From NCBI RefSeq assembly GCF_051955415.1, contig NZ_JBQCGS010000071.1:688-64687 (forward strand): a stretch of DNA of 64,000 nucleotides, given 5' to 3'. The stretch comes from Flexivirga sp. Lineage in GTDB: Bacteria; Actinomycetota; Actinomycetes; Actinomycetales; Dermatophilaceae. The notes under the pieces are model-generated. The model searched no databases, was not told where the DNA came from, and saw only the letters and a list, made by a program, of their open reading frames with translations. Positions 1-64,000 of the stretch are shown here, one piece after another. Numbering within the stretch: position 1 is the first letter of the stretch; the number at the start of each line of letters is the position of its first letter. Both the position numbers and the translations under genes were made by a program.

Positions 1-54
1 GCATCTCGACAACAAGCGGCAGTTCGTCAATCTTGGCTGCATCTCGACAGGACT

Positions 55-2709
55 TTAGAAGTTCTGCGCCATGTTGGTGAACCGTGAGTAGTGCCCTTGG
101 AACGCCACGGTGATCGTGTCGGTTGGACCATTACGGTGCTTGGCGACAATCAGGTCGGCTTCGCCGGCGCGCTCGGACTCGCGGTCGTAGGAATCCTCGC
201 GGTGCAGCAGGATCACCATGTCGGCGTCCTGCTCGATGCTGTTATGGGCGGCAATCCCGTTGGCGATGAAGTTGTGGCTGCCAATCACGGTAGCGTCGAA
301 TACCTCCTCGACACCTTCGAGATCGATCGACACGACGCTGTCCCAGAAAACGTCGTTCACACACATCAGCTCAAGTTCAGCGCTGTCGAGCAGTGTCGCG
401 ACACGACCGAGCCGCTCACGCGAAGGCGCGTGCTTCCACATCGTCGAGCCACAGAACTGCGTGCCCATCGCCGCGGCGAACTCGCGATGCGTCATCCCGC
501 GTTCAGTGAGCACTTCCCTGACGGTGTCCCAAACAGGTGTCGGAACGGTATCTACGTTGGTGTTGGAGCTGGTCTCGCGAACGATGGCGAGCAGCCGGGT
601 AGCGTGCACGCCGCGATCACCAAAGACGCCAATCTCCTGCAGGAACCGGCGTTGACTGTCGGACCCGGAGATGTCAATCGTGTAGCCGTCGCGATATCCG
701 TTCTTCCGGGTGACCCGCGTACGTGTGGAAATGCCGAAGCGCAACAGCAGCAGGCTCAGGTCATCGACCAGCCGCCGCGACGTCGACGCGTAGTAGATGC
801 GACCACCTTTACCGGATTTGTTTACCGTGACCGAGCCGTCCGTCGCCCAAATGTGCTTCAGAAAGAGTGCGATCTGCCGCTTGGAGGCATGGAACATCGA
901 CTCCGGCACGAACTTTTCGTGACTGCGCAGTCCGAATAATCCGAGCCCATCGAGCCACTCCGCAATCGGATTACGGCGCCCGTGCGTCAACCGGTACGGC
1001 GCGCGAAGCCTCAGCGTGGTGACCCTCGCAGCGGCGTAGTCATCCCTGACAGCCACCACCCCGAAACCGCCGAGCGCCGCCTTGCTGACCGCCTCCAGGT
1101 TGTGCTCGTCGATGCTGGCGTATCGGATGGGTTGCTTCTTGACGAAGGATCCGTCACCGATGAGATGTGCCAGAAGGATGACCTTGTCGTCTTCCCACGG
1201 CTCGAACCGTTCGGGAGCGGGAACGTGCCGCGGCACCGCGAGTCGGTCACCAGCGTGCAAGTCTCCCAGCTGCTGCCAGCCGCCATACGTCAGGAAACGG
1301 TGGTTCTCGGTCGCGCGGATCGTCTTGCCCGACCCGAGCGTCATCCGAAAGACCGGCCGCATCCCGGTGGAGAAGGCGTGGGTGAGGGGTCTGACGACAT
1401 ACCGCAGCGAGTCGTCGAGTGCCCAGATCGGGATTTCCTTCTCGCCCGTCCTCGCGAGTTCACCGATCGACACTTCCGCGCCCGTGTCGGCGCGTAGGAG
1501 TCGCGTGTCACCGGTCAGGCAACCGGACTCGCGCAGATCTGACATCTGGGGGCGCTTGTCAGTGCGTTGCTCGGGACCACGGTTCAGCTGGCTGATCGCG
1601 ATGACCGGGACGTTGATCTCCTTGGCCAGTAGCTTCAGCGCACGGGAAAACTCCGACACTTCCTGCTGCCGGGACTCAACGCGCTTGCCCGACGTCATCA
1701 GCTGCAGGTAGTCGATGACCACCAGCTTCAGGTCGTTGCGCTCCTTCAGACGCCGACACTTCGAGCGAATCTCCATCAGCGACATGTTCGGCGAATCATC
1801 AATGAACAATGGCGCATCCGCCACCTTGCCCATCGTGGTCGCCAGCCGCGTCCAGTCCTCGTCGCGCATGGTGCCCTTGCGCATGTGCTGCAGCTGTATC
1901 CCGCCCTCCGCGGACAGCAGCCGCATAGAGATCTCGGTCTTGCTCATTTCCAGCGAGAAGATCGCTGACGCCATACCAGCCTTGATCGAGCACGCCCGGG
2001 CAATGTCTAGACCAATCGTTGACTTGCCCACAGCAGGCCTGGCCGCGATGACGATCATCTGACCCGGGTGCAGACCGTTGGTCAGCGCGTCGAGGTCGGT
2101 GAAGCCGGTGGGCACGCCGACCATCTGACCGTTGGTGCTGCTGGCGGCGTCGATCTCATCGGCGGTCTCGGCGATGATCTCGCCGAGCCGGACGTAGTCC
2201 TCGGCTTCCTTGCCGGCGGTGACGCCGAAGACCTCGGCCTGGGCGGCGTTGATGACGTCCACGACGTCGCCGCCGCCGTCGGCATACCCCATCTGCACGA
2301 TGCGGGTGCCGGCCGTGACCAGGCGACGGAGGACGGCGCGCTCGGCGACGATCTCGGCGTAGTAGCCGGCGTTGGCGGCGGTCGGCACACCCTGGATCAG
2401 CTCGTGCAGGTAGGCCTGGCCGCCGATGCGGCTCAGCTCGCCGCGTTTGGTCAGCTCGTCGGCGACGGTGATCGCGTCGGCCGGCTCCCCGCGCCCGTAG
2501 AGGTCGATGATGGCTTCATAGATCGCCTCGTGCGCCGGCCGGTAGAAGTCGCGCCCGTCCACGGCCTCGGCCGCGTCGGCGATCGCATCCTTGGACAGCA
2601 GCATGCTGCCGAGCACCGACTGCTCCGCTGGAACGTCCTGCGGCGGGACCAATCCGCCCCCGTGGCCACCTTCGTCGGTGTAGTCCGGGGGAAGCTCAGC
2701 AATCGCCAC
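55..2709 (-). CDS. dnaB: Replicative DNA helicase DnaB (intein-containing precursor)
   Basis: ORF 55..2991(-). Exteins read as canonical DnaB (PPQDVPAEQSVLGSML..., Walker A ARPAVGKST, ...QMSDLRESG | SIEQDADMVILLHRED...). Start trimmed to in-frame GTG at 2709 with AAGGAG 7 nt upstream. No ATG lies upstream of the conserved N-terminus. Confidence 0.93.
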   Translation of the reverse strand: MAIAELPPDYTDEGGHGGGLVPPQDVPAEQSVLGSMLLSKDAIADAAEAVDGRDFYRPAHEAIYEAIIDLYGRGEPADAITVADELTKRGELSRIGGQAYLHELIQGVPTAANAGYYAEIVAERAVLRRLVTAGTRIVQMGYADGGGDVVDVINAAQAEVFGVTAGKEAEDYVRLGEIIAETADEIDAASSTNGQMVGVPTGFTDLDALTNGLHPGQMIVIAARPAVGKSTIGLDIARACSIKAGMASAIFSLEMSKTEISMRLLSAEGGIQLQHMRKGTMRDEDWTRLATTMGKVADAPLFIDDSPNMSLMEIRSKCRRLKERNDLKLVVIDYLQLMTSGKRVESRQQEVSEFSRALKLLAKEINVPVIAISQLNRGPEQRTDKRPQMSDLRESGCLTGDTRLLRADTGAEVSIGELARTGEKEIPIWALDDSLRYVVRPLTHAFSTGMRPVFRMTLGSGKTIRATENHRFLTYGGWQQLGDLHAGDRLAVPRHVPAPERFEPWEDDKVILLAHLIGDGSFVKKQPIRYASIDEHNLEAVSKAALGGFGVVAVRDDYAAARVTTLRLRAPYRLTHGRRNPIAEWLDGLGLFGLRSHEKFVPESMFHASKRQIALFLKHIWATDGSVTVNKSGKGGRIYYASTSRRLVDDLSLLLLRFGISTRTRVTRKNGYRDGYTIDISGSDSQRRFLQEIGVFGDRGVHATRLLAIVRETSSNTNVDTVPTPVWDTVREVLTERGMTHREFAAAMGTQFCGSTMWKHAPSRERLGRVATLLDSAELELMCVNDVFWDSVVSIDLEGVEEVFDATVIGSHNFIANGIAAHNSIEQDADMVILLHREDSYDRESERAGEADLIVAKHRNGPTDTITVAFQGHYSRFTNMAQNF
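241..1521 (-). mobile_element. DnaB intein with LAGLIDADG homing-endonuclease domain (427 codons, in frame)
   Basis: Insertion between ...DLRESG and SIEQDAD.... First residue is Cys (codon 1519-1521, CLTGDTRLL). Last residues are His-Asn (241-246, ...IAAHN), followed by Ser. Two LAGLIDADG blocks: LLAHLIGDGS and LKHIWATDGS. Confidence 0.9.
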
Positions 2710-2864
2710 GCACGCTCTCCTTGCGACCGTTTTCGGACATGTGTCTACTGCACCACAAGGGTGTGACAGTGGTTGGCAACCGGGGTGCGTGACACGCGAA
2801 GTGGCCACGCTAGAACCGATTCGCCGCCCCCGCAAACGACCGCTCAGATGCGCTCGGGACAACC

Positions 2865-2929
2865 TGTGGACAACGTGTGGAGGAGTCGGTATGTCGTGTG
2901 CACGAGCCTGGGGACAGCGGTGTGGATAA
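2865..2929 (-). promoter_or_regulatory. DnaA-box pair upstream of dnaB
   Basis: TGTGGACAA (2865-2873) and TGTGGATAA (2921-2929) read TTGTCCACA and TTATCCACA on the - strand. Both are perfect DnaA-box 9-mers about 155-220 nt upstream of the dnaB start. A degenerate TGTGGAGGA lies at 2876-2884. Confidence 0.5.
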
Positions 2930-2991
2930 CCATGTGGGTGTGTCGCCCTCGGCGCGCTGACCTGCGCAAACGCGCGACCGCCGTTGTGCAC

Positions 2992-3022
2992 AAGAAAAAA
3001 GTTTGGCGTGTTTGTGACGCCA
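2992..3022 (-). terminator. Rho-independent terminator after the 3101..4027 gene
   Basis: On the - strand: TGGCGT-CACAAAC-ACGCCA hairpin followed by AACTTTTTTCTT, about 80 nt downstream of the stop at 3101. Confidence 0.6.
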
Positions 3023-3100
3023 GTTACCCACAGCGCCGTGGTGGCGGCGTGCCGCCACAGCGGGTCTGCGGATCGTGCCCGCGCACGGATTGCAGGCGGC

Positions 3101-4674: not shown

Positions 4675-4845
4675 CGGTGACATCCCTCCCTGAGTGGAAC
4701 CTGAGTGCCCCGCGATTATCGGCGCCCTGTCGGGCGCAAAACCGGCCAACCGATTAAAACTTTGGTCAAGAAGCGGCGCGGCGCGGCATACCCGACCCCG
4801 CGATCATGCCAAGCCGATGGGTCACGGCGCAGAAGTTGTCCACAG

Positions 4846-4854
4846 GCACCCACC
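4846..4854 (+). promoter_or_regulatory. Isolated perfect DnaA box TTGTCCACA
   Basis: Exact 9-mer in the spacer between the lipoprotein gene start (4674) and the NlpC/P60 gene stop (5076). Confidence 0.4.
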
Positions 4855-5003: not shown

Positions 5004-5016
5004 CGGCATATGCACC

Positions 5017-5052: not shown

Positions 5053-5075
5053 GTGGACCGGACGGCGAGCTGCGC

Positions 5076-11400: not shown

Positions 11401-11550
11401 CGTGGCCCGCCCCCGGTCGTCACCGTCTCCGGTGTCTCCCGCGAGTATGCCGCCAGGCTCCGACATACGGATACCTACGGCACGGGCCGGACGCGAGTTT
11501 ATCGGTCAACGACCGTCCGGCGTTAATCGAGATCGCGCGATGCGGCACTC

Positions 11551-20279: not shown

Positions 20280-21182
20280 ATGAGTGATGCGCGCGTCGCG
20301 GTCTACATCGACTTCGACAACATGGTGATCTCGCGGTACGACGCCGTGCACGGCTCCGGCCGGTGGCGCAAGGACAACGCCCGCGATCACACGCCCGCGG
20401 AGGAGGGTGAGGTGTCGCGTCGCCTCATCGAGGCCGAGGTCGACCTGGGCGCGATCATCGACTACGCCTCGTCGTTCGGCACCGTGGCCTTCACCCGCGC
20501 GTATGCCGACTGGTCGGTGCCGGCCAATGCGGCATACAAGCGGCAGCTGACCGACCGCGCCGTCGATCTGGTGCAGCTCTTCGCGACGTCGGGGACCAAG
20601 AACGGCGCCGACATACGCCTGTCGATCGATGCGGTCAACGATCTCTTCCAGCACGCCGACATCACGCATGTCGTGGTGGTGGGCGGGGATTCGGACTACA
20701 TCGCGCTGGCGCAGCGCTGCAAGCAACTCGGCAGGTTCGTCGTCGGCATCGGCGTCACCGGGTCGACGAGCCGCGCGCTCGTGGCTGCGTGCGACGACTT
20801 CAGCTCGTACGGCGACCTGCCCGGCGTCTCCGACGACGCCGCAGCAGAGGCGCCCGGAGCGGATGCCGGACCCGTGGCCAGCACACCTGCGAAGCCGGTC
20901 AAGAAGGCTGCCGCCAAGTCCGCGAAAGCGCGAAAGACCGCCACGAGCAAGGAAGCTCAGGCCACCGCGTTGTTGCGCCGCGCGATCCGGATCGGCGCCG
21001 AGAAGAGCGACGACGGCTGGCAGCACTCGTCCAGCCTGAAGAGCCAGATGCAGCGCCTGGACTCGACCTTCAAGGAGAAGTCGCTCGGGTTCTCGTCGTT
21101 CCGCGCGTTCGTGGAGAGTCACGACAAGCTGGTGGAGACCAAGCTGCTGGACAATGGGCAGCTGGCCGTCCGGCTCCGGTGA
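20280..21182 (+). CDS. NYN (LabA-like) domain protein with C-terminal OST-HTH/LOTUS domain
   Basis: VAVYIDFDNM...GADIRLSIDAVNDL...VVVVGGDSDYIALAQRCKQLGRFVVGIG is the NYN part. KSQMQRLDSTFKEKSLGFSSFRAFVESH is the OST-HTH part. Confidence 0.8.
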   Translation: MSDARVAVYIDFDNMVISRYDAVHGSGRWRKDNARDHTPAEEGEVSRRLIEAEVDLGAIIDYASSFGTVAFTRAYADWSVPANAAYKRQLTDRAVDLVQLFATSGTKNGADIRLSIDAVNDLFQHADITHVVVVGGDSDYIALAQRCKQLGRFVVGIGVTGSTSRALVAACDDFSSYGDLPGVSDDAAAEAPGADAGPVASTPAKPVKKAAAKSAKARKTATSKEAQATALLRRAIRIGAEKSDDGWQHSSSLKSQMQRLDSTFKEKSLGFSSFRAFVESHDKLVETKLLDNGQLAVRLR

Positions 21183-21237
21183 CCTCCGCACATACGTATG
21201 GCGCGGCTCCCCCGGATGCCGCGCCATACTTCGTCGC

Positions 21238-26068: not shown

Positions 26069-28143
26069 TCGACAACCACGACAGCTTCACGCACAACCTG
26101 CTGCAGTTGCTGCGGGAGTTCGCCGCGGTGACCGTGGAGGTGGTCCGCAACGACGAGCCGCTGCCGCTGGGCTGGACCGCCCGCTTCGACGCCGTCGTCA
26201 TCTCACCCGGCCCTGGCCACCCCGGCGTGCCGGCCGATGTCGGGACGTCGCGGCAGGTGCTCGAACACAGCGAGCTGCCGGTCCTCGGGGTGTGCCTGGG
26301 CCATCAGCTGCTCGGGCTGCTGCACGGCTGCCCGGTGGAGCGATCCGATCACCCGAGACACGGCGAATCATCGGTGATCTCGCACGCCGGCGATCCGTTG
26401 TTCGACGGCATACCAGGCGAATTCACCGCCGTGCGCTATCACAGCCTCGAGGTCACGACCGTCGTCGCGCCCATCGAACCGCTGGCGTATGCCGACGACG
26501 GCACGCTGATGGCGCTGCGTGTCGCGGGCCGGCCCCGCTGGGGCGTGCAGTTCCACCCCGAGTCGATCGAGAGCAGCTTCGGGTCGACCCTGATCGGCAA
26601 CTTCCTGCGGCTCGCGGCGAGCGCCGACGACCCGGCCGGCTCACGCCTGCCGAGCCGGCAACGATCGCTCCGGCTCGACCGGCCGCTGACGGTCGAGCAG
26701 GTGCTGCGGCTGTGCCCGACGGCGCCGGACGTCGTGCTGGACGGCATCTCGACGGCATACCGCGGCAGCTGCACCGTGATCGGCTGGACCGATGCGCACT
26801 GCGGCCACCGACTGCTCGGCACGGTCGGCGACGGCACCCGGCTGGTGCGGGACGGCACGGTCACCGACCTGCCGACCGGGATCCTGGACACCTTGCAACG
26901 CCGGCTGCGCGCTGCAGCCGGGCGGCTGGAGACCGTCGGCGACGACCCCGGCGTGGTGCTCGGGTATGCCGGCTACTTCGGCTACGAGGTCGGCACGGAA
27001 CTGGTCGGGCTGCCGGCATCGCATCCACGAGGCGCGCACGACTGGCCGGATGCCTGGTGGCTGCTGGTCACCCGCGCAGTGGTGGTGGACGACGAGAACC
27101 GTTGCCATCTGGTCGGTCTGGACGATCCGGACGACGCCTCGGCGGTCGCCTCGCTGGATCGGTGGCGCGCCGAGCTGCACCCGCTGCTGGCGGGCGACAT
27201 ACCGGCGGCGGACGATGCCGAGCCCCGGACCGGGTCGGCCGCGCTCGAGCAGGTCGAGGACGCCACGTCAGCCGAGGGCTACCTGCGGCTGGTCGGCGAC
27301 TGCCAGCAGGCGATCGCCCGGGGTGAGTCCTACGAGTTGTGCCTCACCCGCCGGATCCGCGGCCGTTTCACCGGCGACCCGCTGCGACTCTTCGGCTCGG
27401 TGCGCGCGGCCGGTGCGGTGCCGCACGCGGCATACCTGCGCCTGGATGACCGGCGGACCGTCGTGTCCGCCTCGCCCGAGCTGTTCCTGCGGGTCGACGC
27501 CCGCGGGCACGCGGTGAGTGCCCCGATCAAGGGCACCCGGCGCAGCAGCGGGGACCCCGCCCGCGACGCGGCGAGCGCCGCCGAGCTGGCCCGCTCCGCC
27601 AAGGATCGCGCCGAGAACCTGATGATCGTGGATCTGGTCCGCAACGACCTCAACCGGATCGCCGTGCCGGGCAGCACGCGGGTCACCGAGCTGTATGGCG
27701 TCCGGCGCTTCCCCACCGTCATACAACTGGTGAGCACGATCGAGTGCGAACTGCCGGCCGACCGTGACGCGCTGGATCTGGTGCGGGTGGCGTTCCCGCC
27801 GGGCTCGATGACCGGTGCGCCGAAGGAGCGCTCGGTGCAGCTGCTCGGGCGTCTGGAGGCGGAGCGGCGCGGCGTCTACTCCGGATCCATCGGGCTGCTG
27901 GGGCTGGACGGCACGGCCACGCTCAATGTGGCGATCCGCACCGTGCAGCTGACCGGTGACCGCTTCGTGCTCGGCGTCGGCGGTGCGATCACCCGGTTGT
28001 CCGACCCGGACGCCGAGTGGCAGGAGACGGTCGACAAGGCGCAGTCGATGCTGCGGGCGATGGCGGCAGCGCCCGGACCACCCGAGCGTCGGGCCGGCGA
28101 CTCCCGTTTACCGACCGGACACGAACGGGCTGACCGGACATGA
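26053..28143 (+). CDS. pabB: Aminodeoxychorismate synthase, fused glutamine amidotransferase + component I (PabAB)
   Basis: N-terminal GATase (VLLIDNHDSFTHNL, GVCLGHQ, QFHPES) and C-terminal chorismate-binding domain (SPELFLR...PIKGT...AENLMIVDLVRND...PPGSMTGAPK...GGAI). Confidence 0.85.
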   Translation: MRVLLIDNHDSFTHNLLQLLREFAAVTVEVVRNDEPLPLGWTARFDAVVISPGPGHPGVPADVGTSRQVLEHSELPVLGVCLGHQLLGLLHGCPVERSDHPRHGESSVISHAGDPLFDGIPGEFTAVRYHSLEVTTVVAPIEPLAYADDGTLMALRVAGRPRWGVQFHPESIESSFGSTLIGNFLRLAASADDPAGSRLPSRQRSLRLDRPLTVEQVLRLCPTAPDVVLDGISTAYRGSCTVIGWTDAHCGHRLLGTVGDGTRLVRDGTVTDLPTGILDTLQRRLRAAAGRLETVGDDPGVVLGYAGYFGYEVGTELVGLPASHPRGAHDWPDAWWLLVTRAVVVDDENRCHLVGLDDPDDASAVASLDRWRAELHPLLAGDIPAADDAEPRTGSAALEQVEDATSAEGYLRLVGDCQQAIARGESYELCLTRRIRGRFTGDPLRLFGSVRAAGAVPHAAYLRLDDRRTVVSASPELFLRVDARGHAVSAPIKGTRRSSGDPARDAASAAELARSAKDRAENLMIVDLVRNDLNRIAVPGSTRVTELYGVRRFPTVIQLVSTIECELPADRDALDLVRVAFPPGSMTGAPKERSVQLLGRLEAERRGVYSGSIGLLGLDGTATLNVAIRTVQLTGDRFVLGVGGAITRLSDPDAEWQETVDKAQSMLRAMAAAPGPPERRAGDSRLPTGHERADRT

Positions 28144-37556: not shown

Positions 37557-37557
37557 C

Positions 37558-40907: not shown

Positions 40908-40920
40908 GTGAGCACCCCAC

Positions 40921-40965
40921 CAAGTCTTCCCTGCTTCGCTCCTCCGATACTTCGCGAGGACCCCG
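40921..40965 (+). repeat. Dispersed repeat family, degenerate copy F
   Basis: CAAGTCTTCCCTGCTTCGCTCCTCCGATACTTCGCGAGGACCCCG aligns with part of copy E (41633-41676). Confidence 0.5.
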
Positions 40966-40966
40966 C

Positions 40967-44487: not shown

Positions 44488-44489
44488 CC

Positions 44490-49466: not shown

Positions 49467-51978
49467 CCACCGGCCGGGTCACCCACTCGCTCTCGGGGCC
49501 GCCCTGCTCGCGCTCCTGCTCGGACTGTTCGCCGCTGGTGTCACTGCAGGTATGTCGCCCGCCGCTGCTGCGCCCTCCGCGGCCGCGACGGCGGCGCCGA
49601 AGTCGTCGACTGCCCGGATCAGCCTGGGCGCCAACCTGCCGGCCGTCTCATCCGCCGGGCAGGCGGTCACCGTCACCGGCACCATCACCAACATCGGGTC
49701 GGCCACCCTGGACAACCCGATGGTGCACGTCTCGGTCAGCGGCGACCACCTGCTCGACACACGCAGCGCCGCGGACGGCTGGATCTCGGGGACGCTCGAC
49801 GTCCCATTGACCGAGGTCGCGTCCGGCAGGGCCGGCGCCCTGGCGCCCGGCAGCAGCACGCCGTTCTCGGTCACCATCCCCGGCAAGAAGCTGTCCTACG
49901 ACTACGGCCTGGCCTCCTTGCCGATGACCGTCACGGTCACCGACGGCGGGCCGGCCGCCTCCGCCATACGGGGTATGGCGCGCAGCGCCCTGCAGCTGCA
50001 GAACTCCGCGGTCACGTCGCCGTTGCGGGTGAGCATCGTCGTGCCGCTGACCCTGCCGGCCGATCCGGACCTCTTCGGGCCGACCGGGTCCGCGCGGGCG
50101 GCGGCGTGGGAGCGCGCGGTCGGACCCGACTCGCTGGTGCAACGCACCTTGGACGCGTTGGCCGGCGACCCGGTCGTCTTCGCGGTGGACCCGGCGCTGA
50201 TCGACCCCCCGGCACCCTCCGACGACAACGTCCCCTCCGCCGCGGCCAGTGCCTCGAGCCCCTCGTCGAGCCCCTCGTCGAATTCGTCGGCGGGGTCGCC
50301 GTCCGGCGCCACGGGATCGCCGGAGCAGTCGTCGTCCCCGGCGTCGACCGGAGCATCGGCGGGATCGACCGGTGCGGGGTCCACCGGCCGGGCCTCCGGC
50401 AGCGGCGGCACGCCCGACCCGACGAGCACCGCATCGGGCGCGGCGAGCGGCTCGGGCACGCCGTCGTCGTCGGCTTCGTCACCATCTTCCTCCTCGTCCT
50501 CTTCCTCGTCGTCACCGTCGCCCTCCTCCTCGCAGACCAGCACCCCGCCGGACACCCCCCAGGGCCGGATCGACGCGGCGGTGGACGGGCTCACCGACCG
50601 GCTCACCGGGCTGGGCTCCGAGCAGTCGGTGTGGTGGCTGCCCTCGGACGACCCGGACCTGACCGCGTTGCACGGACTGGGCAAGCCGGGGCAGTCGCTG
50701 GTGTCGCGTGACTTCGCGCGCGTCCTGCCCGACCGGGTCACCGCGCTCGGTGACGTCCGGCTCGTCTGGCCGACCGGCGACCTGCCCGGCGCGGCCGTCA
50801 GTTCCTACACCACGCAACTCGCCGCCGGCAGCAAGGCCCGAGCAGTCGCCCTGCTGCCCCAACGCGCCGTCCGGCGACCGGACGCCCCGACCGCCATCTA
50901 TCGCGCCGCCGGCACCTCCGGTGTCCTGACGTATGACGAGTCGCTGTCCGGTGTCTTCAGCGGGGCCAGCACTTCGCCGGGCGCGCAGACCGGTCGGCTA
51001 CTGACCCAGCTGCTCGCTCTCTACCAGCAGTCACCGGGCACACCGCGGTCGATCGCACTGGTGGCGCCCCGTTCCGGCGGTGCCAACCCGACCCAGCTGG
51101 CGGCCCGGATCGACGCGCTCCAGACGGCCGGTTGGGTGGGCCTGCGGACCGGCGCGCAGTCGACCGCTGCCCTGCGCACGGCTCCGGTGACCACCCTGTT
51201 GAAGACCCCTGCCCAGGGCGGCTCGACACCGACCGTCCCGGCGAAAGCCGTCACGGCCGACGAGCTCGCCGCCCTGCACGATGCTCGGGCGGACCTGTCC
51301 GCCCTGCAGAGCGTTCTGGTCGGCGGTGACGACGTCATGCCCGAACGGAAGCGGGCACTGGACATCATCGGCTCCACGCGCTGGCGCGGCGGCGCCGCGA
51401 AGTTGCACGTCGTCGCCGATCGGGACCATGCCGCGGTCGTGGCCATGCTGCACAAGCTGAGCATCCGCTCGTCCACGATCAATTTCTTCGCCGACTCCGG
51501 CGACATCAGCCTCACCGTCTCCAACGAACTCAACCGGCCGGTGCACGACGTCCAGGTGGAGCTGCAACGGCGCAAGTACCTCGTCCGGGTCACCGACTCG
51601 CCGCAGCAGGTCGACATCGGTGCCGGTGCCCGCGCCGCCGTCCATTTCCACATCGAGGCGGTCGGTGGCGGCACGGTGCCGCTGGACGCGGTGCTGCGGG
51701 CACCCGACGGGACGGCGTTGACCGACACGGACGCGCCGGCACAGCTGAAGATCAACGTGCACCCGACCTCCGGGTGGATCATGTGGGTACTCGGCGTCCT
51801 CGCCGCACTGATCCTCGCGATCGGCCTGTGGCGCGCCGTACGCCGAGGTCCGCGGACCGCCTCCGAGCAGCCGGTGGCCACGGACGCGCCGACCCCGGAG
51901 GACGCCATCGTCGATGCCGGCGAGACCACCGCACAGCAGACCACAGATCGAGGCGAGGGCAGCGACACCGATGACTGA
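49414..51978 (+). CDS. Large secreted/membrane-anchored conserved protein (DUF6049-like, Rv3909 position)
   Basis: 854 aa. N-terminal signal/TM, a ~100-aa Ser/Pro-rich insert, C-terminal TM (GWIMWVLGVLAALILAIGLW). Sits upstream of murJ as in other actinomycetes. Confidence 0.7.
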   Translation: MSDASSKQPGNTWRRRPDHRPGHPLALGAALLALLLGLFAAGVTAGMSPAAAAPSAAATAAPKSSTARISLGANLPAVSSAGQAVTVTGTITNIGSATLDNPMVHVSVSGDHLLDTRSAADGWISGTLDVPLTEVASGRAGALAPGSSTPFSVTIPGKKLSYDYGLASLPMTVTVTDGGPAASAIRGMARSALQLQNSAVTSPLRVSIVVPLTLPADPDLFGPTGSARAAAWERAVGPDSLVQRTLDALAGDPVVFAVDPALIDPPAPSDDNVPSAAASASSPSSSPSSNSSAGSPSGATGSPEQSSSPASTGASAGSTGAGSTGRASGSGGTPDPTSTASGAASGSGTPSSSASSPSSSSSSSSSSPSPSSSQTSTPPDTPQGRIDAAVDGLTDRLTGLGSEQSVWWLPSDDPDLTALHGLGKPGQSLVSRDFARVLPDRVTALGDVRLVWPTGDLPGAAVSSYTTQLAAGSKARAVALLPQRAVRRPDAPTAIYRAAGTSGVLTYDESLSGVFSGASTSPGAQTGRLLTQLLALYQQSPGTPRSIALVAPRSGGANPTQLAARIDALQTAGWVGLRTGAQSTAALRTAPVTTLLKTPAQGGSTPTVPAKAVTADELAALHDARADLSALQSVLVGGDDVMPERKRALDIIGSTRWRGGAAKLHVVADRDHAAVVAMLHKLSIRSSTINFFADSGDISLTVSNELNRPVHDVQVELQRRKYLVRVTDSPQQVDIGAGARAAVHFHIEAVGGGTVPLDAVLRAPDGTALTDTDAPAQLKINVHPTSGWIMWVLGVLAALILAIGLWRAVRRGPRTASEQPVATDAPTPEDAIVDAGETTAQQTTDRGEGSDTDD

Positions 51979-58973: not shown

Positions 58974-60116
58974 TCAGCGTTCGCTGTGGACGCCGAGCTG
59001 GTCCATGATGCGGTTCAGATCCTCGACGCTGGCGAACTCGACGGTGAGCTTGCCGCGGCTCTTGCCGAGGGAGATCTTGACCCGGGTGTCGAGCTGATCC
59101 GACAGGCTTGCCGCCAGATTGTCCAGCTGCGGGTGGTGCTGGCCGGCGCGCGGCGACCGCCGGGTGGCACGCTCCTTGTCACCGCCGAGCGCGACGATCT
59201 CCTCCGTGCTGCGGACAGACAGGCCCTCGGCAACAATGCGCTGGGCGAGGCGCTCCATCGCGGCCGCGTCCGGCAACCCGAGCAGGGCGCGGGCGTGCCC
59301 GGCGGACAGCACACCGGCGGCAACGCGTCGCTGCACCAGCGCGGGCAACTTCAGCAGGCGCAGGGTGTTGCTGATCTGCGGGCGGGAGCGGCCGATCCGG
59401 CCGGCGAGTTCCTCGTGCGTGCAGTCGAAGTCGTCCAGCAGTTGGCCGTATGCCGCGGCTTCCTCCAGCGGGTTCAGTTGGGCACGATGCAGGTTCTCCA
59501 GCAACGCGTCGCGCAGCATGTCGTCGTCGTCGGTGCTGCGGATGATGGCGGGGATCGTCGCCTTCTCCGCACCCCGGCTGGCGCGCAGCCGGCGCTCGCC
59601 CATGATGAGCTCGTACCCGACGCCCGCCTCGGCGGCATCAGCGGCGGTCAGCTTCCGCACCACGATCGGCTGGAGCACGCCGATCTCACGCACACTGTGC
59701 ACCAGCTCGGCCAGTTCGTCCTCGTCGAAGACGGTCCGCGGTTGGCGCGGGTTGGGCCGGATCTGGTCTACCGGCAGCTCGGCGAAGGTCGCGCCGGGCA
59801 CTTCCTGCAACTGGTCGTCAGAGGCGTTGGTCGCCGTCGACGGATCCTCCCCCTCGTTCGTGCCGGCGTCGAGCATCGCCGAGCCTTCGGGCGCCGCACC
59901 GGTGATCGAGTCCGCCGCTGCGCTTTCCGCAACTGCGGACCGCGCCATGTTTCCCGTGAAACGCTCACTGGAATCCTGGTGCTGGGCGGTGGTAGCCACC
60001 GAACCACCGCCGGGGAAGAAGACGTCGGACGGTCGGGGCGTGCCGGTGGTCGGTGCGGGTGCCGTCGGTATCAGTGCGCCCAGCCCACGTCCGAGGCCGC
60101 GTCGTTTTTCGCTCAC
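58974..60116 (-). CDS. parB: Chromosome partitioning protein ParB
   Basis: [49 protein letters not shown] overlap with the parA stop. Confidence 0.95.
59948..59963. promoter_or_regulatory. parS-like site inside parB
   Basis: TGTTTCCCGTGAAACG versus consensus TGTTTCACGTGAAACA (2 mismatches). Confidence 0.65.
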
Positions 60117-61273
60117 TGGTCGATCGTAGTGCCTTGTGCGGCGAGCTCCTTGGCAGCCTCCGCGTACGAAAGCGCGCCGCTGCTCGACGGATCGTACGTG
60201 AGCACGGTCTGCCCGTGGCTCGGCGCTTCCGAGATGCGCACCGAGCGCGGGATCGAGGCCCTCAGGACCTGATCGGTGAAGTGGGCACGCACTTCCTCGG
60301 CCACCTGTGCGGACAGTCGCGTGCGGGCGTCATACATGGTCAGCAGGATGGTGGAGACGTGCAGCCGAGGGTTGAGGTGCGCGCGGATCAGTTCGATGTT
60401 CTTCAGCAACTGGCTCAACCCCTCCAGCGCGTAGTACTCGCACTGGATGGGGATGAACACTTCCTCGGCCGCAACGAAGGCGTTCACGGTCAGCAGGCCG
60501 AGGCTGGGCGGGCAGTCGATCAGGATGAAGTCGAAGCGTCCCGCCGGGCCGGGGTCCGCCTGATACTGATCGATGGCCCGCTTCAGCCGTGATTCACGTG
60601 CCACTAGTGACACCAGCTCGAGCTCGGCGCCGGCCAGATCGATCGTCGCCGGCGCGCACCACAGGCCGGGTATGTCCGGGCACTCCTGCAGCACGCCGGC
60701 GAGTTCGTCGTCGTCGACCACGACGTCGTAAATGCTCGGGACCTCGGCGTGATGCGGTATGCCGAGCGCCGTGCTCGCGTTGCCCTGCGGGTCGATGTCG
60801 ATGACCAGCACGCGCAGACCGAACTGGGCCAGTGCGGCCGCCACATTGACCGTCGTCGTGGTCTTGCCCACCCCGCCCTTCTGGTTCGAGATGGTGAGGA
60901 TCCGCGGTTGCGCGGGCGCGTGGACAGCGCCCTGCGCCAGCCGCTCGCGCCGCCGCGCCTCGTCCACCAGTTGATCGGCGAGCGGGGATGCGGTGGGCGT
61001 CTCCGTGACAGGAGGCACGGTCGCTATGTCCTCGGCCGCGCCCGCGACGGTGGTTTCACGGGAAACGCTCGACGGCACCGTTTCACGGGAAACATCACCA
61101 GAAGCCGGGACGACGTGTCGCGCTGCTTCGGTCGCCCCCGCGGGCACGGGGTACAGAGCGCCGACTTCGACCGTCGGCGCGAGCCGGGCGGCGTTACGCC
61201 AGCCGACCGGCTCGGGACTCGTCGATACGTCTGCAGGTCCCTGCCAGCCCGTGGGCAGCGAGAGTGTGCTCAC
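60113..61273 (-). CDS. parA: Chromosome partitioning ATPase ParA (long N-terminal extension)
   Basis: Deviant Walker [17 protein letters not shown] start at 61273. A shorter isoform start is possible. Confidence 0.9.
61052..61094. promoter_or_regulatory. Two parS-like sites, 27 nt apart, inside the parA 5' region
   Basis: GGTTTCACGGGAAACG (61052-61067) and CGTTTCACGGGAAACA (61079-61094). They encode the duplicated peptide VSRET. Confidence 0.65.
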
Positions 61274-61351
61274 CGTTCGCCTTCCGTTCGTCGTCCTGCA
61301 GCGAAGCGATATCGCTCACCGCCGTGTTGAGTAGTGGCGCAGCATCCGCGG

Positions 61352-62119
61352 TCAGCGCGTGCGGCGAGCGCCGGAACGCGCCACGTGCTTCGAGGACCGT
61401 GTGCCGCCGCCCTTCTTCGCGCCGCTCTTGCTCAGCCGGCGCGGTGTGCCGATCGTCAAACGCGCGACCGTGGTGGGCTCGTCCAGCACATCACCACCGC
61501 ATTCCACCACCTCGACCGCAGTGACGCCGACTGACGTCAGCAGTTCACGACTCGCGTCGATCTCCTCGGCCACGGTGGAGCCCTTCATCGGCAACCACCA
61601 GCCGCCAGGACGAACCAGCGGGACGGACCAGACGGCAAGGTTCTCCAGTGCCGACACGGCGCGTGAGGTCACCACGTCGGCCGGGCCGACGTCGTCCCAG
61701 AGCGCCTCGGCGCGTCCTCGGGCCACCGTCACGTTGGACAGCGAGAGCGTCTGCACCACCTCGTCCAGCCAGCGCACCCGGCGCAGCAACGGCTCGACCA
61801 ATGTCACGGTCAGATCAGGGCGGCGGATCGCGATCACCAGGCCCGGCAGCCCGGCGCCGCTGCCGACGTCCACCACCGTGCTGCCGGTGTCGATCAGCTC
61901 GGTGATCACCGCGCAGTTGAGGATGTGCCGTTCCCATAATCGCGGCGCCTCGCGTGGCCCCAGCAGTCCGCGGATGACGCCGGAGCCCGCCAACAACTCC
62001 GCATACTGCTGCGCGATGGGCAGCCGGTCGCCGAAGAGACGCGCCGCGGCAGCGGGCGCCGCAGGGACCGGGGCAGTCTCCAGCGGCCGAGAGCCGTGCG
62101 CGGAGTGTTCGTGTTTCAC
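61352..62119 (-). CDS. rsmG: 16S rRNA (guanine527-N7)-methyltransferase RsmG (GidB)
   Basis: VVDVGSGAGLPGLVIAI, LVEPLLRRVRWL, TSRAV. Basic C-terminal tail. Confidence 0.9.
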   Translation of the reverse strand: MKHEHSAHGSRPLETAPVPAAPAAAARLFGDRLPIAQQYAELLAGSGVIRGLLGPREAPRLWERHILNCAVITELIDTGSTVVDVGSGAGLPGLVIAIRRPDLTVTLVEPLLRRVRWLDEVVQTLSLSNVTVARGRAEALWDDVGPADVVTSRAVSALENLAVWSVPLVRPGGWWLPMKGSTVAEEIDASRELLTSVGVTAVEVVECGGDVLDEPTTVARLTIGTPRRLSKSGAKKGGGTRSSKHVARSGARRTR

Positions 62120-62127
62120 GTGGAACG
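62112..62127. promoter_or_regulatory. parS-like site overlapping the rsmG start codon
   Basis: TGTTTCACGTGGAACG (2 mismatches to TGTTTCACGTGAAACA). Confidence 0.65.
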
Positions 62128-62130
62128 CGG

Positions 62131-62691
62131 TCAGTCGTCCGAGGGCAGAACCACCACGAAGCGACGTGGTTCGGCGCCCTCCGACTCGGAGCGCAGGCCC
62201 TCGGCGAGCACCGCGTCGTGCACGACCTTGCGCTCGAACGCCGACATCGGGTCCAGCGCCACGCGCTGACCGTCGCCCTTGACCGAGGTGACCGCGTCTT
62301 GGGCGATCTTGACCAACTCCGCGCGCCGATCCGCGCGGAAGCCGGCGACGTCCAACATCAGTCGGCTGCGGTTGCCGGTCTCGGCCTGCACCGCCAGGCG
62401 AGTGAGTTCCTGCAGCGCGTCGAGCACCTTGCCGTTCTGGCCGACCAGGCGACGAGGCACCCGCCCGTCTTCGGAGTCCACGATGGACACCGAGGCCCGG
62501 TCACCATCCACGTCGACGTCGATGTCGCCGTCCAGGTCGGCGATATCGAGCAGTGTCTCCAAGAAGTCCGCGGCGACCTCACCCTCGCGGTCCAGGTCCA
62601 CGGCCTTGGTCGAGACGGCCGGAGCTGCAGCGCTCGATTCGGTCGCTGCATCGTCGGCCGCGGGGGCATCGTCGGTGGTCACGTCAGTCAT
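62131..62691 (-). CDS. jag: Jag/KhpB-type RNA-binding protein (KH + R3H)
   Basis: LVGQNGKVLDALQELTRLAV (KH-like) and DPMSAFERKVVHDAV (R3H). Positioned between yidC and rsmG. Confidence 0.85.
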   Translation of the reverse strand: MTDVTTDDAPAADDAATESSAAAPAVSTKAVDLDREGEVAADFLETLLDIADLDGDIDVDVDGDRASVSIVDSEDGRVPRRLVGQNGKVLDALQELTRLAVQAETGNRSRLMLDVAGFRADRRAELVKIAQDAVTSVKGDGQRVALDPMSAFERKVVHDAVLAEGLRSESEGAEPRRFVVVLPSDD

Positions 62692-62823
62692 TCTTCACTC
62701 CCGGGTGCATTGAACGTGCGTCGAACGTGTAGGGAACACGAAGTCTGTGGCGCCGGCCCTGACGCAAGTGCGGTGACCGGGCTTCGCCCACCGCCTCGTC
62801 GCCGGCGCCGTTGACAAGTGGGG

Positions 62824-63819
62824 CTAGCGTTTGCGCTTCTTGTTGTTGTTGCGCTTGGGTTGCACGCGCTGGCCGCCCGCCTTTCCGGCGGTGCCGCCGT
62901 CGGCGGTGACCAGGCCCGGCGTGCCGGGTGGTGTCTTGGACTTGGCCAGCTCGACGGACGCATCCGCAGGCTCCTCGTCCTCGGTCTTGTGCAGGCCGGG
63001 GATGCTCAGCTTGGTGATCGGCTTGCCCTTGGCGGCCCGACGCGCCTCGAGCGCCTTCTCCGCCTCGGATCCGGGCGCCGGCATCCGGCGGATCGTGTAG
63101 AACTGCTGGCCCATGGTCCACAGGTTGGTGGTCACCCAGTAGAGCAGCACACCGATCGGGAAGTTCACGCCGGAGATCGCGAAGAACACCGGCATGATGT
63201 ACATGATGTATTTCTGCTGCTTGGCCATCGGGTTGTCGAGGGCCGACGCGGGCATGTTCTTGCGCATCAGCTGGTGCTGAGTGGTGAAGACCGTGACCGA
63301 CATGATGATGATCAGCGCGATGCACAGCGTGCGCACCGCCGCGACGGGCGACTCGCCCGGGTGCAGGAACGCCGAGGACAACCGGACGTTGAACAGCGTC
63401 GACTGCTCGGCCTGACGCGCCAGGCTCTGCGTCATCCAGCCGATCGGGTCGTGGTGGCCGGAGCCGATGTCCTTGAGTCGGTCCAGGACGCGGAACAGCG
63501 CGAAGAAGAACGGCGACTGCAGCAGCATCGGCATACAGGAGGAGAACGGGTTAGTGCCCGCCTTCTTGTAGAGCTCCATCGTCTCCTCAGTCATCTTCTG
63601 ACGAGACTCGGCGTCCTTCTTGCCCTTGTACTTCTTCTGGATCTTCTGGATCTCGGGCTGGATGAGCTGCATCCGCCGCGACGACTTGATCTGCTTGACG
63701 AACAGCGGGATCAGCATGATGCGCAGCACGAGCACGAGGCCCACGATCGACAGCGCCCACGTCCAGCCATTGGCGGCCGGCAGACCGATGGCGGTGAAGA
63801 TCTTGTGGAAACCCACCAT
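62824..63819 (-). CDS. yidC: Membrane protein insertase YidC
   Basis: LIPLFVKQIKSSRRMQLIQPEIQKIQKKYKGK, GTNPFSSCMPMLLQSPFFFALF. The conserved N-terminus continues upstream of this ATG (see finding on a possible ATC start at 63876). Confidence 0.9.
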   Translation of the reverse strand: MVGFHKIFTAIGLPAANGWTWALSIVGLVLVLRIMLIPLFVKQIKSSRRMQLIQPEIQKIQKKYKGKKDAESRQKMTEETMELYKKAGTNPFSSCMPMLLQSPFFFALFRVLDRLKDIGSGHHDPIGWMTQSLARQAEQSTLFNVRLSSAFLHPGESPVAAVRTLCIALIIIMSVTVFTTQHQLMRKNMPASALDNPMAKQQKYIMYIMPVFFAISGVNFPIGVLLYWVTTNLWTMGQQFYTIRRMPAPGSEAEKALEARRAAKGKPITKLSIPGLHKTEDEEPADASVELAKSKTPPGTPGLVTADGGTAGKAGGQRVQPKRNNNKKRKR

Positions 63820-63888
63820 GACGAAGGCGACGAACCATTCGAGCGGGTACAGGATCGTGTCGAAGAAGTTGTAGATGGCGGGGTCCTT

Positions 63889-64000
63889 CTATTTGAGCGG
63901 CGCCGGCGCAGGTGCACCGGAGTCGTCCGCAGTGACAACAGGCGGAACGTGGTCCACGCCGCCAGGGTTCCATGGGTGGCATCGAGCGAGCCGGCGCACG
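63889..64000 (-). CDS. yidD: Membrane protein insertion efficiency factor YidD (3' part; 5' end outside window)
   Basis: My own translation of the - strand gives ...VRRLARCHPWNPGGVDHVPPVV...PLK*, which contains the YidD signature RCHPxxxGGxDxVP. TAG stop at 63889-63891. Confidence 0.8.
   Translation of the reverse strand, partial: VRRLARCHPWNPGGVDHVPPVVTADDSGAPAPAPLK

Follow-up and report, generated by a model that had tools for sequence, protein, structure and literature searches.

CGNCATAC, an over-represented degenerate word and putative self-DNA recognition tag in Flexivirga and related actinobacteria

Introduction

Short tag words let some bacteria recognise self-DNA. The closest described systems are the DUS of Neisseriaceae, the USS of Pasteurellaceae and the cyanobacterial octamer HIP1. 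For the latter, Elhai reportedly proposed a methyl-directed repair ratchet. To our knowledge, no comparable word has been described in Actinobacteria, and natural competence is undocumented for the genera Flexivirga and Rudaeicoccus. One-mismatch forms of the uptake words are themselves enriched, about 3-fold for USS and about 5.8-fold for DUS (H. influenzae and N. gonorrhoeae, respectively; PMC1939737, Table 1). HIP1 is over-represented 15-300-fold, and Xu et al. argued for a chromosome-structuring role (PMC5861425). [quoted passage not shown] Known Chi sites show a few-fold enrichment at about one per 5 kb (PMC5861425, introduction).

Results

The window, i.e. the whole 64-kb stretch analysed here, is origin-proximal chromosome of Flexivirga sp. 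(Dermacoccaceae). The following gene block places oriC just past its right end, and hence all 64 kb on one replichore:

58974..63819, minus strand: parB-parA-gidB-jag-yidC (gene table of L081, same DNA)

A preliminary description had counted about 44 exact copies of the octamer CGGCATAC. All 15 of its example coordinates were correct, and 45 exact copies (22 on the plus and 23 on the minus strand) are present where about one is expected; dinucleotide-preserving shuffles (n=100) averaged 1.06 copies and never exceeded 5, so that the excess is real. However, the octamer is one form of a degenerate unit, CGNCATAC/GTATGNCG, with 112 sites of 8 bases each (62+/50-), 2.5 times as abundant as had been counted. 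The related words that had also seemed frequent belong to this same motif: CGCCATAC occurs 31 times, CGTCATAC 20 times and CGACATAC 16 times. Of all 122 CATAC occurrences in the window, 112 directly follow CGN, and CATAC without this context stays at the control level of 0.15/kb. The sites are as follows (start, strand of CGNCATAC, base at N):

Sites 1: 1281+C; 1395+A; 1969+C; 2280+G; 2889-A; 3264-G; 4784+G; 5307-T; 5639+C; 6005+G; 6585-G; 7070-C; 8458+G; 8587-C; 9210+G; 10376-T; 10837+C; 11445-G; 11461+A; 11681+A
Sites 2: 11718-G; 12108-C; 12327+C; 12776+G; 13197-T; 13323-A; 13860+G; 14256-G; 14464+T; 14571+C; 15069-G; 15739+C; 15858+C; 16403+G; 17729-C; 17803+C; 17896+G; 18292-A; 18484+A; 18939+C
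Sites 3: 19354-G; 19895-G; 20253+C; 20501-G; 20530+G; 20609+A; 21196-C; 21222+C; 22342+A; 22608+C; 22885-T; 23148+G; 24707-G; 25212-G; 25458+G; 25690-T; 25950+A; 26406+G; 26487-G; 26753+G
Sites 4: 26964-G; 27195+A; 27428+G; 27693-C; 27717+T; 28637+C; 29406-C; 29985+G; 30481+C; 31335-G; 31610+G; 32687+T; 32708-G; 33465+T; 33921-A; 34533+T; 36252-G; 36961+C; 38192+G; 38431-T
Sites 5: 39227-T; 40528+A; 42688-T; 43088+C; 44304+A; 45274+T; 45409-C; 45865-G; 45954-C; 46747+C; 47143+T; 47541-G; 47717+C; 48365+T; 49550-A; 49962+C; 49973-C; 50931-T; 52078-G; 52614-G
Sites 6: 54240+G; 54538-G; 55395+T; 56924-C; 57078-T; 57314+A; 57478-G; 58418+G; 59448-G; 60328+T; 60757-G; 63529+G

Neither a Markov model nor synonymous codon choice reproduces these counts. 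An order-1 model expects 4.7 CGNCATAC sites (a 24-fold excess) and an order-3 model 5.4 copies of CGGCATAC; the order-5 figure of 28.5 'predicted' copies is circular, since the GGCATA hexamer itself lies inside the octamer in 45 of 47 cases. Shuffling synonymous codons within genes yielded 7.6 +/- 2.5 sites (maximum 14) against 87 observed genic sites, a shortfall of more than 10-fold. In a GC-matched Actinomycetota panel of about 1.53 Mb the word occurs at about 0.035-0.036/kb, compared to 1.75/kb in the window, and this 46-fold excess is of the same order as that of HIP1. The 21 one-mismatch words pooled stand at 1.03x control, with an order-1 Markov ratio of about 0.8.

The excess is not a local fluctuation. 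The murJ locus of eight further genomes has a like density, and CGNCATAC reaches 1.2-2.1/kb in seven other sampled Flexivirga genomes, Rudaeicoccus and an Intrasporangiaceae-like metagenomic contig. Like densities were also found in a Flexivirga locus that lies 0.88 Mb or more away from the origin (L212) and in the unrelated nuo/pepN locus of another lineage (L295). In the chromosome of Flexivirga and a few relatives this amounts to about one site per 600 bases. No enrichment was detected in Dermacoccus or in the GC-matched panel.

Orientation is balanced in the window (62/50, p = 0.30, single replichore), in the pooled sites from one replichore (188/169, p = 0.34) and with respect to the gene strand (43 same-strand, 44 antisense). 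Density is 1.79/kb in genes vs 1.62/kb elsewhere, with 87 of the 112 sites (about 78%) being genic. The flanks hold at most 0.16 bit of information and spacing is roughly exponential (CV 0.86), with no regular placement at window scale; both features point to a bare 8-bp word and not to a mobile element. A REP- or MITE-like repeat, which would be an extragenic imperfect palindrome of 20-40 bp spreading by insertion, was rejected on the genic location of 87/112 sites, the unconserved flanks and the lack of indels at aligned sites. The preliminary description had likewise seen no strand skew, no conserved flanks and sites in coding and non-coding DNA, and it had set the word apart from Chi/KOPS, which are indeed poor models, as neither replichore nor transcription-strand skew is present.

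Within genes, whichever strand they lie on, CGNCATAC is read in four frames and captures rare codons: 21 of the 36 ATA and 32 of the 57 TAT codons of the window lie in its sites, and NCA codons are forced too. Two sites whose codons had already been read correctly illustrate this:

26406..26413, plus strand: ATA-forcing site in pabAB (GAC GGC ATA CCA), with a rare Ile codon
16403..16410, plus strand: site in a PadR-family gene, read in the frame TCG GCA TAC

The two frames in which the word dictates a whole tripeptide (R-H-T and V-[C/W]-R) are used by only 4 of the 87 genic sites, i.e. the choice of frame tracks protein cost. The use of four frames on both gene strands and the failure of the codon null support the earlier view that the cause acts on DNA and not on codons or peptides.

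The number of close CGNCATAC pairs is approximately that predicted from Poisson spacing, and 22 of them are inverted vs five direct (p = 0.0015), some forming strong intergenic hairpins. Four pairs are listed (no strand assigned):

21196..21229: inverted pair in a 12-bp-stem hairpin, GTATGGCGCGGC-N10-GCCGCGCCATAC (DNA fold -17.7 kcal/mol, z = -3.95)
20501..20537: inverted pair GTATGCCG-N21-CGGCATAC within the NYN-domain gene (folding energy -15.3 kcal/mol, z = -2.3)
49962..49980: head-to-head pair CGCCATAC-GGG-GTATGGCG inside the DUF6049 gene, kept in four Flexivirga genomes
11445..11468: intergenic inverted pair GTATGCCG-N8-CGACATAC upstream of rpsF

The first pair sits between two convergent genes, the NYN/OST-HTH gene ending at 21182 and a minus-strand gene at 21238-21924, and looks terminator-like. 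In the DUF6049 gene the N positions vary among the four genomes while the pair itself is kept. For the pair upstream of rpsF, DNA folding gave no significant hairpin.

In alignments the sites arose by point substitution from diverse outgroup precursors, and no site showed an indel. They were conserved in 304 of 651 comparisons vs 112 expected, 2.7x the phase-matched local background, while the N position drifts and the conserved sites carry disfavoured codons. CGNCGTAC is a frequent alternative state of CGNCATAC at orthologous positions, with transitions between the two. Flexivirga and Rudaeicoccus have almost no sites in common at the same density, which means that the force continues to operate in the two genera. 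A single locus, a 10-kb plasmid/ICE-like segment, holds no site (P about 5e-6), compared to 12 in the adjoining 4 kb. This segment belongs to a 21-kb stretch that is 99.98% identical between two Flexivirga species, and it was transferred recently.

Among 4-mers, GTAC shows the strongest depletion (0.35x; 2.8-fold) in every motif-rich genome and contig. Dermacoccus, the control panel and the mobile segment lacking the motif show no such depletion. The preliminary description had missed this depletion. GTAC alternates with ATAC/GTAT in 9 of 39 cases vs 3 of 59 equivalent changes of the control CATG (p = 0.011). The depletion of CGNCGTAC (0.46) is not stronger than that of GTAC overall, and the motif alone, at 1.64/kb, is denser than CGNCGTAC and CGNCATAC taken together in control genomes (0.69/kb).

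Discussion

CGNCATAC is a lineage-specific word that acts at the level of double-stranded DNA and is held at about 1.6/kb in the genera Flexivirga and Rudaeicoccus and in one or more Intrasporangiaceae-like lineages. Under a directional force, point substitution makes sites where the protein tolerates them, and the same force then keeps them, against the strong GC and codon bias of the genome. As the most likely mechanism we tentatively propose that the word tags self-DNA for recognition, in the manner of DUS, USS and HIP1. Some sequence-specific factor in DNA uptake or in the ensuing recombination would favour DNA that bears the word, perhaps recognized only when methylated, as reported for HIP1, and word-bearing alleles from kin would be preferentially taken up and recombined into the chromosome. 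Such a molecular drive would build up the word on both strands, genic and intergenic alike, with site turnover at constant density, and would leave it absent from recent conjugative DNA from outside the clade.

The proposed tag agrees with the 46-fold (panel) and 24-fold (Markov) excess, strand symmetry, equal genic and non-genic density, captured rare codons, frame use by protein cost, a bare word without flanks, substitution origin, 2.7x conservation, turnover at equal density, the site-free transferred segment, the inverted-pair bias with its hairpins and the transformation precedent of HIP1. Against it stand the one-mismatch variants at 1.03x control, undocumented competence, the lack of competence, pilin and methyltransferase genes in the 64-kb window, and a length of seven specified bases, shorter than DUS or USS. 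Moreover, GTAC depletion is not predicted, and a word found in separated lineages and not in Dermacoccus fits a mobile R-M or methyltransferase determinant no worse than an uptake receptor passed on vertically.

Instead, a non-palindromic methyltransferase encoded on a mobile gene (Type IIG, Type III or orphan) could have CGNCATAC as its target. The word would then be enriched via a selected methylation-dependent function or a methyl-directed repair ratchet, and GTAC depletion would be the mark left by GTAC-specific restriction in the same lineages. Such enzymes typically recognise asymmetric words of this build (seven specified bases, one internal N); their targets, however, are normally unenriched and often avoided. 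We judge this explanation unlikely, even though it would account for GTAC depletion confined to motif-rich genomes and contigs, the GTAC alternation and the patchy range (Flexivirga, Rudaeicoccus and the Intrasporangiaceae-like contig, not Dermacoccus), and can invoke HIP1 (PMC4390886; 10.64898/2026.06.24.733823). No methyltransferase was seen within the 64 kb. A single-step ratchet conflicts with the size of the precursor pool and the weaker depletion of CGNCGTAC, and a ratchet from GTAC with the frames C-GNC-ATA-C and GT-ATG-NCG, which are not synonymously derivable from it. The methyltransferase and tag models are mutually compatible.

Quite unlikely, in our estimate, is a binding site of an abundant lineage-specific nucleoid or chromosome-organising protein, with density under purifying selection. 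We know of no nucleoid protein that requires some 8,000 exact 7-base sites, and no candidate was identified. Conservation above background, similar density in eight genomes despite turnover and symmetry by strand and gene are consistent with such a site, and the sharp on/off specificity without a mismatch halo is expected of a selected binding site rather than of a graded drive. Xu et al. argued for such a chromosome-structuring role in the case of HIP1 (PMC5861425). The near-random spacing (CV 0.86) speaks against it, and it predicts neither the inverted-pair bias nor GTAC depletion.

Chi-like self-protection, in which CGNCATAC would weaken the action on host DNA of a nuclease or helicase (a defence nuclease, or an enzyme of the RecBCD or AdnAB type) and be selected across the core genome, matches an 8-bp non-palindromic, core-enriched word that is absent from recently acquired mobile DNA, but is improbable given that known Chi and KOPS are co-oriented with replication (here 62/50 and 188/169) and that Chi enrichment is only few-fold. 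A neutral by-product of context-specific mutation or repair bias (e.g. GTACG deamination to GTATG) or of codon or dipeptide usage would fit the frequent CGNCGTAC/CGNCATAC exchange and GTAC depletion, but is very improbable and already largely refuted by the more than 10-fold failure of the codon-aware null, equal coding and non-coding density, diverse outgroup precursors, a motif density above the entire precursor pool of control genomes, 2.7x conservation despite disfavoured codons and non-CGN CATAC at control level.

Returning to the tag, we consider it possible, if rather doubtful, that Flexivirga, Rudaeicoccus and some Intrasporangiaceae-like bacteria have an uptake or kin-recognition system that uses CGNCATAC, maybe read through methylation and maybe coupled to GTAC-specific restriction. 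If true, no uptake-type signal would have been described before it in Actinobacteria or in any other Gram-positive organism, and the coupling would explain the co-travelling k-mer anomalies and the patchy trait.

Comparison with known systems

The resemblance to DUS, USS and HIP1 proposed in the preliminary description holds in gross anatomy and fails in the enrichment of mismatch variants. Like DUS and USS, CGNCATAC is a short, non-palindromic, lineage-specific word at about one per kb, equal on both strands and in genic and intergenic DNA, originating by point substitution in the cheapest frames, with some inverted pairs in hairpins that may act as terminators, and missing from recent imports. 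In contrast, DUS and USS specify 9-12 bases vs seven, and their one-mismatch forms are enriched 3-6x vs 1.03x. Also unlike them, CGNCATAC resides in a Gram-positive high-GC actinobacterium with undocumented competence and DUS-type receptor, has no AT-rich or extended flanking consensus and is accompanied by GTAC depletion.

Chi, KOPS and AIMS share the 8-bp non-palindromic form, and KOPS (GGGNAGGG) also has seven specified bases and one N, but they are 10-50 times less frequent and strongly biased towards the direction of replication, whereas CGNCATAC is unskewed on a single replichore. A minority of intergenic sites at the base of GC-rich hairpins recalls the GTAG head of RAYT-associated REP/BIME elements; most sites (about 78%), unlike these, are single genic 8-mers without palindrome or insertion footprint.

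With HIP1 (GCGATCGC), CGNCATAC shares an octamer length, a large excess (tens- to hundreds-fold, at up to one per 350 bp, in HIP1), spread by substitution, conservation beyond codons and a polyphyletic, patchy distribution. The function of HIP1 was long obscure and is now reportedly tied to methylation-dependent transformation. HIP1 is a perfect palindrome that holds methyltransferase sites (GATC, CGATCG), whereas CGNCATAC is non-palindromic with a free internal base, has no known methyltransferase and belongs to a different phylum.

Definition of the motif

The 64-kb window contains 45 copies of the octamer CGGCATAC (22 forward, 23 reverse), which the preliminary description had put at about 44; 100 dinucleotide-preserving shuffles averaged 1.06 copies and never exceeded 5. 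All example coordinates listed for the octamer were correct. The octamer is the most common form of a degenerate word rather than the unit itself. CATAC is preceded by CGN in 112 of its 122 window copies, with G (45), C (31), T (20) or A (16) at the N position; hence the true unit is CGNCATAC/GTATGNCG, and the related words that had also seemed frequent belong to the same motif. It has 112 sites, one per 570 bp, where an order-1 Markov model would give 4.7, and members of the CGNCATAC family ranked first at k = 7, 8 and 9 in an unbiased k-mer scan of the window. With an information content of 14 bits the word is sharply defined. An order-5 Markov model expects 28.5 copies of CGGCATAC, which is no refutation, since a model of such high order re-uses the motif itself (45 of the 47 GGCATA hexamers fall within the octamer).

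Coding anatomy

Window genes were taken as long ORFs with GC3 > 0.8 and GC1 > GC2; these are crude calls, many of them checked against Pfam. On this basis 87 sites are genic (1.79/kb) and 25 non-genic (1.62/kb). Shuffling synonymous codons gene by gene left 7.6 ± 2.5 sites (maximum 14 in 200 shuffles) against the 87 observed, although this null is generous because it retains the rare codons brought in by the motif, which accounts for 21 of the 36 ATA and 32 of the 57 TAT codons in window genes. The failure of the synonymous shuffle and the equal non-coding density rule out codon or dipeptide usage. The genic sites are divided between gene strand (43) and antisense (44), and most of them occupy four reading frames.

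Reading frames of the genic CGNCATAC sites in the window
Frame; orientation or requirement; sites
nCG-NCA-TAC; gene strand; 20
C-GNC-ATA-C; gene strand; 21
G-TAT-GNC-G; antisense; 31
GT-ATG-NCG; antisense; 11
CGN-CAT-ACn; requires Arg-His-Thr; 2
GTA-TGN-CGn; requires Val-[Cys/Trp]-Arg; 2

This pattern matches the expectation for a force at the DNA level with protein cost filtering the placement of sites, and thus bears out the DNA-level cause originally proposed from the use of several frames and rare codons. The flanks, as had been described, are unconserved: among 401 pooled sites the information at any of the ±20 positions reaches at most 0.16 bit and reflects only the 3-base coding periodicity, which disposes of a hidden bipartite (Type I-like) partner or an extended consensus. 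Spacing of sites in the window is near-exponential (CV 0.86).

Distribution across lineages

The control panel consisted of 80 Actinomycetota loci from a Dxs search (1.53 Mb, GC 65–75%), all located around one gene family. Pooled CGNCATAC density was 1.64/kb in the motif-rich clade, composed of Flexivirga and Rudaeicoccus, and 0.036/kb in the controls, a 46-fold difference. The word is real and clade-restricted.

Density of CGNCATAC at murJ loci and in the control panel
Locus; sites per kb
Flexivirga MAG, murJ ±10 kb; 1.65
F. endophytica, murJ; 1.60
F. alba, murJ; 1.83
F. caeni, murJ; 1.46
F. meconopsidis, murJ; 1.28
Flexivirga sp. ID2601S, murJ; 1.23
Rudaeicoccus suwonensis, murJ (MurJ 55% identical); 2.14
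Dermacoccus, murJ (MurJ 48% identical); 0.05
80 diverse Actinomycetota loci; 0.035 (maximum 0.23)

A metagenome search with a highly specific three-site pattern returned several high-GC contigs with the full signature among unrelated low-GC repeats. The best of them, L295 (14.6 kb, GC 0.70), carries 21 sites throughout its length (1.43/kb) and encodes ABC exporters, PepN, HtpX and NuoL/M/N. Its PepN is nearest to uncultured Actinomycetota (69–70%) and also near Tetrasphaera, Knoellia and Phycicoccus (59–65%), not Flexivirga. Going by this affinity and the site density, a second lineage, Intrasporangiaceae-like, is also enriched in the word, and at a chromosomal location that has nothing to do with the origin. 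Most of the other three-site matches were low-GC repeat clusters and irrelevant; L218, L226, L238, L239, L262 and others (Ga0056124, Ga0209052, Ga0209562) bear overlapping palindromic word clusters at the ends of low-GC contigs, which probably represent a family of repeats from some unrelated organism.

Chromosomal setting and strand symmetry

The MurJ encoded in the window and the MurJ of Flexivirga sp. GCA_054778955.1 share 100% identity. The gene order is dnaB (with intein), rplI-ssb-rpsF, ponA, ino1, pabAB, a hopanoid cluster, cca-nudix-DUF6049-murJ and parB-parA-gidB-jag-yidC; the last group places oriC just past the right end and the entire window on one replichore. On this single replichore the sites are split 62 forward to 50 reverse (p = 0.30), and pooled over eight syntenic loci 188 to 169 (p = 0.34). 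The absence of strand skew noted at the outset thus holds, and it excludes a polarity of the Chi, KOPS or AIMS type. Genes for methyltransferases, restriction, competence or transposases were not found within the 64-kb window. Further features of the window are:

55-2991, reverse strand: dnaB, into which an intein carrying a LAGLIDADG homing-endonuclease domain is inserted (about nt 240-1488)
33271-35304, forward strand: one ORF joining a PAP2_3 phosphatase domain and a WS/DGAT wax-ester synthase
37297-47305: hopanoid-type cluster with squalene/phytoene synthase, an amine-oxidase plus polyprenyl-synthase ORF, squalene-hopene cyclase, a PNP_UDP-LytB fusion, a radical-SAM DUF3463 protein and a second Dxs

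The intein makes the first 4 kb of the window GC-poor and nonetheless holds two motif sites (1281, 1395). The Dxs of the cluster is a divergent paralog and shares no more than 60% identity with any Dxs of the best 80 genome matches listed.

Sites beyond the origin and in imported DNA

The origin-distal half of the window holds 71 sites and the origin-proximal half 41. A Flexivirga locus reached through the NlpC/P60 paralog P0149 (L212) is very motif-rich in part; it lies on a contig other than that of the origin, with a distance to murJ of 0.88 Mb or more. The window halves, this locus and L295, the latter two off-origin, argue against a local fluctuation and dismiss an effect confined to the origin.

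F. meconopsidis and Flexivirga sp. ID2601S share a 21-kb stretch (positions 1-21074 of L212 and of its counterpart L211) at 99.98% identity, although their core genes are only about 83% identical; the stretch is hence read as recently transferred DNA. It occupies nearly the same offset (about 35.8 kb) in its two contigs (618 and 681 kb), which points to horizontal transfer that is very recent or to a large replicon common to both. Within the stretch, the first 10 kb encode DUF4192, a sortase, an extra NlpC/P60 protein and numerous small ORFs, and resemble plasmids of Nocardioides and Pimelobacter only faintly. They contain no motif site (P about 5×10⁻⁶ at the local rate) at a normal GTAC density (2.4/kb); the next 4 kb, with the NlpC/P60 paralog and a copper ATPase, contain 12. 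At this one locus, recently imported DNA is without the word.

Turnover of sites

In an alignment of the cca–nudix–DUF6049–murJ block from eight motif-rich genomes and Dermacoccus, no indel coincides with a motif site, and the word is created by substitution. Some sites are common to seven or eight genomes with N varying, e.g. CGT/CGG/CGC-CATAC in one column, and many others are lineage-specific. A frequent alternative at site columns is CGNCGTAC, one transition off, and the outgroup shows diverse states. With all ordered pairs of genomes taken together, 304 of 651 cases retained every one of the seven specified bases, 2.7 times the 112 expected from nearby windows (±600 nt) in matching codon phase. 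Flexivirga and Rudaeicoccus compared with each other show only background conservation (1–3 of 10–14 sites), with density equal or higher. Sites are thus kept above neutral expectation between close relatives and exchanged for others between distant ones, at a density that stays the same; this implies that the force still operates in each lineage and the word is still being renewed.

One-mismatch words and depletion of GTAC

One-mismatch forms of USS and DUS are over-represented about threefold in H. influenzae and 5.8-fold in N. gonorrhoeae, respectively (Bakkali, PMC1939737, Table 1). For CGNCATAC, the 21 one-mismatch words pooled occur at 1.03 times the control density, so specificity is all-or-none. 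The sole clearly low neighbour is CGNCGTAC (0.46 times control), as part of a general GTAC effect. In the clade no 4-mer is depleted more strongly than GTAC (0.35 times the control panel) and no 6-mer more strongly than GGTACC (0.12 times). GTAC density is 0.6–1.14/kb in all eight motif-rich genomes and 0.4–1.3/kb in signature-positive metagenomic contigs, compared with 2.13/kb in Dermacoccus and a control minimum of 1.36 and median of 2.57. The GTAC-depleted sequences are exactly the CGNCATAC-rich set (the window, the loci L083-L088 and L090, and L295, L284, L285 and L252), and no such depletion is seen in Dermacoccus, in the mobile segment without the motif or in 76 control loci. Word enrichment and GTAC depletion therefore co-occur in independent lineages, and we regard their link as real.

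Simple conversion of GTAC to ATAC does not account for the motif: CATAC lacking the CGN context stays at the level of the controls (0.15/kb), the motif (1.64/kb) exceeds the precursor-plus-product pool of controls (0.69/kb), two of the four used frames are not synonymously derivable from GTAC, and GTAC↔ATAC/GTAT alternation within the clade is raised only modestly (9/39 compared with 3/59 for a control word, p = 0.011). Single-step hypermutation of GTACG to GTATG fails likewise, as the motif amounts to 2.4 times the total precursor-plus-product pool in controls, the precursor is depleted no more than GTAC generally and outgroup states are diverse. The association suggests that the determinant of the motif is linked to a restriction system acting on GTAC (perhaps GGTACC) or to some other process directed at GTAC; the simplest guess is that a GTAC-specific restriction-modification system accompanies that determinant.

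Close pairs and hairpins

Adjacent sites at most 60 nt apart are roughly as numerous as Poisson spacing predicts, so that inverted pairs, raised as a check in the preliminary description, stand out by orientation but not by number. All seven close pairs in the window are inverted, as are 22 of 27 across the clade loci (p = 0.0015), some of which are orthologous and so not independent. Several form strong intergenic hairpins; others lie in ordinary coding sequence with no significant fold.

Hairpins formed by close pairs
Location; stability
Window 21196–21229, between convergent genes; −17.7 kcal/mol, z = −3.95
L088 (clade locus), 3' of trxA; 17-bp stem, −23.3 kcal/mol, z = −8.3
L085 and L090 (clade loci); further strong intergenic examples

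Viral and phage matches

The three-site pattern, applied to viral sequences, led to three related IMG/VR contigs with GC 0.65 and low GTAC (L344 4532-4690; L345, on the same contig as L311, 10790-10948; L346 3286-3444), in which arrays of eight copies of GAGTATGACGAG occur; this longer repeat includes CGTCATAC. The arrays, about 150 bp long with copies in both orientations and a small hairpin, lie directly 3' of a primase-polymerase/helicase gene and, to judge from their layout, look like the iteron origin of an integrative replicon. They are best read as an origin that happens to contain CGTCATAC, and were set aside as evidence on the chromosomal motif. A phage-like contig (L175 1-7831, GC 0.57; portal, capsid and terminase-like ORFs) has 6 of its 7 CATAC in CGNCATAC context (0.77/kb) and could be a phage of a motif-bearing host. 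An inverted-pair search of viral sequences gave mostly chance matches and one conserved phage gene start, M..YADGAA.YRAAY.., containing GTATGCCG-N21-CGGCATAC in 24 viral loci (L095, L098, L101, L109, L124, L126 etc.); it is unrelated to the chromosomal phenomenon.

Interpretation and relation to known systems

DUS/USS and HIP1 are the known systems with such an anatomy, and by analogy with them we tentatively favour a self-DNA tag, which would be read in DNA uptake or the ensuing recombination and may spread by molecular drive. A mechanism centred on a methyltransferase, itself compatible with the self-DNA tag, has a modest chance of being correct. The selected binding site of a lineage-specific nucleoid protein would best account for the missing mismatch halo, yet appears unlikely overall. 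Chi-like protection is highly improbable given the lack of skew, and neutral mutation bias or codon usage is effectively excluded.

To our knowledge, sequence-specific DNA uptake has been shown experimentally only in two proteobacterial families. It is a realistic prospect that the word is the mark of a sequence-specific system for DNA uptake or kin recognition, which would be the first of any Gram-positive phylum. The word is sharply defined and clade-restricted, is missing from the sister genus Dermacoccus and occurs in cultivable type strains, so that the reader protein should be discoverable and the hypothesis of uptake can be tested directly. The word is also a sensitive marker of native versus imported DNA in motif-rich genomes and may be needed for the genetic tractability of motif-bearing bacteria.

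Hyper-abundant short words are rare, and USS, DUS, Chi, KOPS and HIP1 each exposed a basic DNA-handling machine; no such word is known to have been reported from Actinobacteria. HIP1 was long enigmatic, with recent indications of a role in sequence-specific uptake. A full-text literature search yielded, in the text available from it, no mention of CGGCATAC as a genomic feature, the sole match being an unrelated paper on VNTR typing of Ralstonia, and nothing on Flexivirga genome architecture or an actinobacterial uptake sequence. A hyper-abundant, lineage-specific DNA word is of a known kind, and this example is new. The likeness to DUS, USS and HIP1 drawn in the preliminary description holds for strand symmetry and for occurrence in genic and intergenic DNA, but not in two respects: the one-mismatch halo of DUS and USS is absent for CGNCATAC, which is not counted as a member of that class, and CGNCATAC, unlike HIP1, is not a palindrome and so is not HIP1. 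Nor does it belong to Chi, KOPS or REP.
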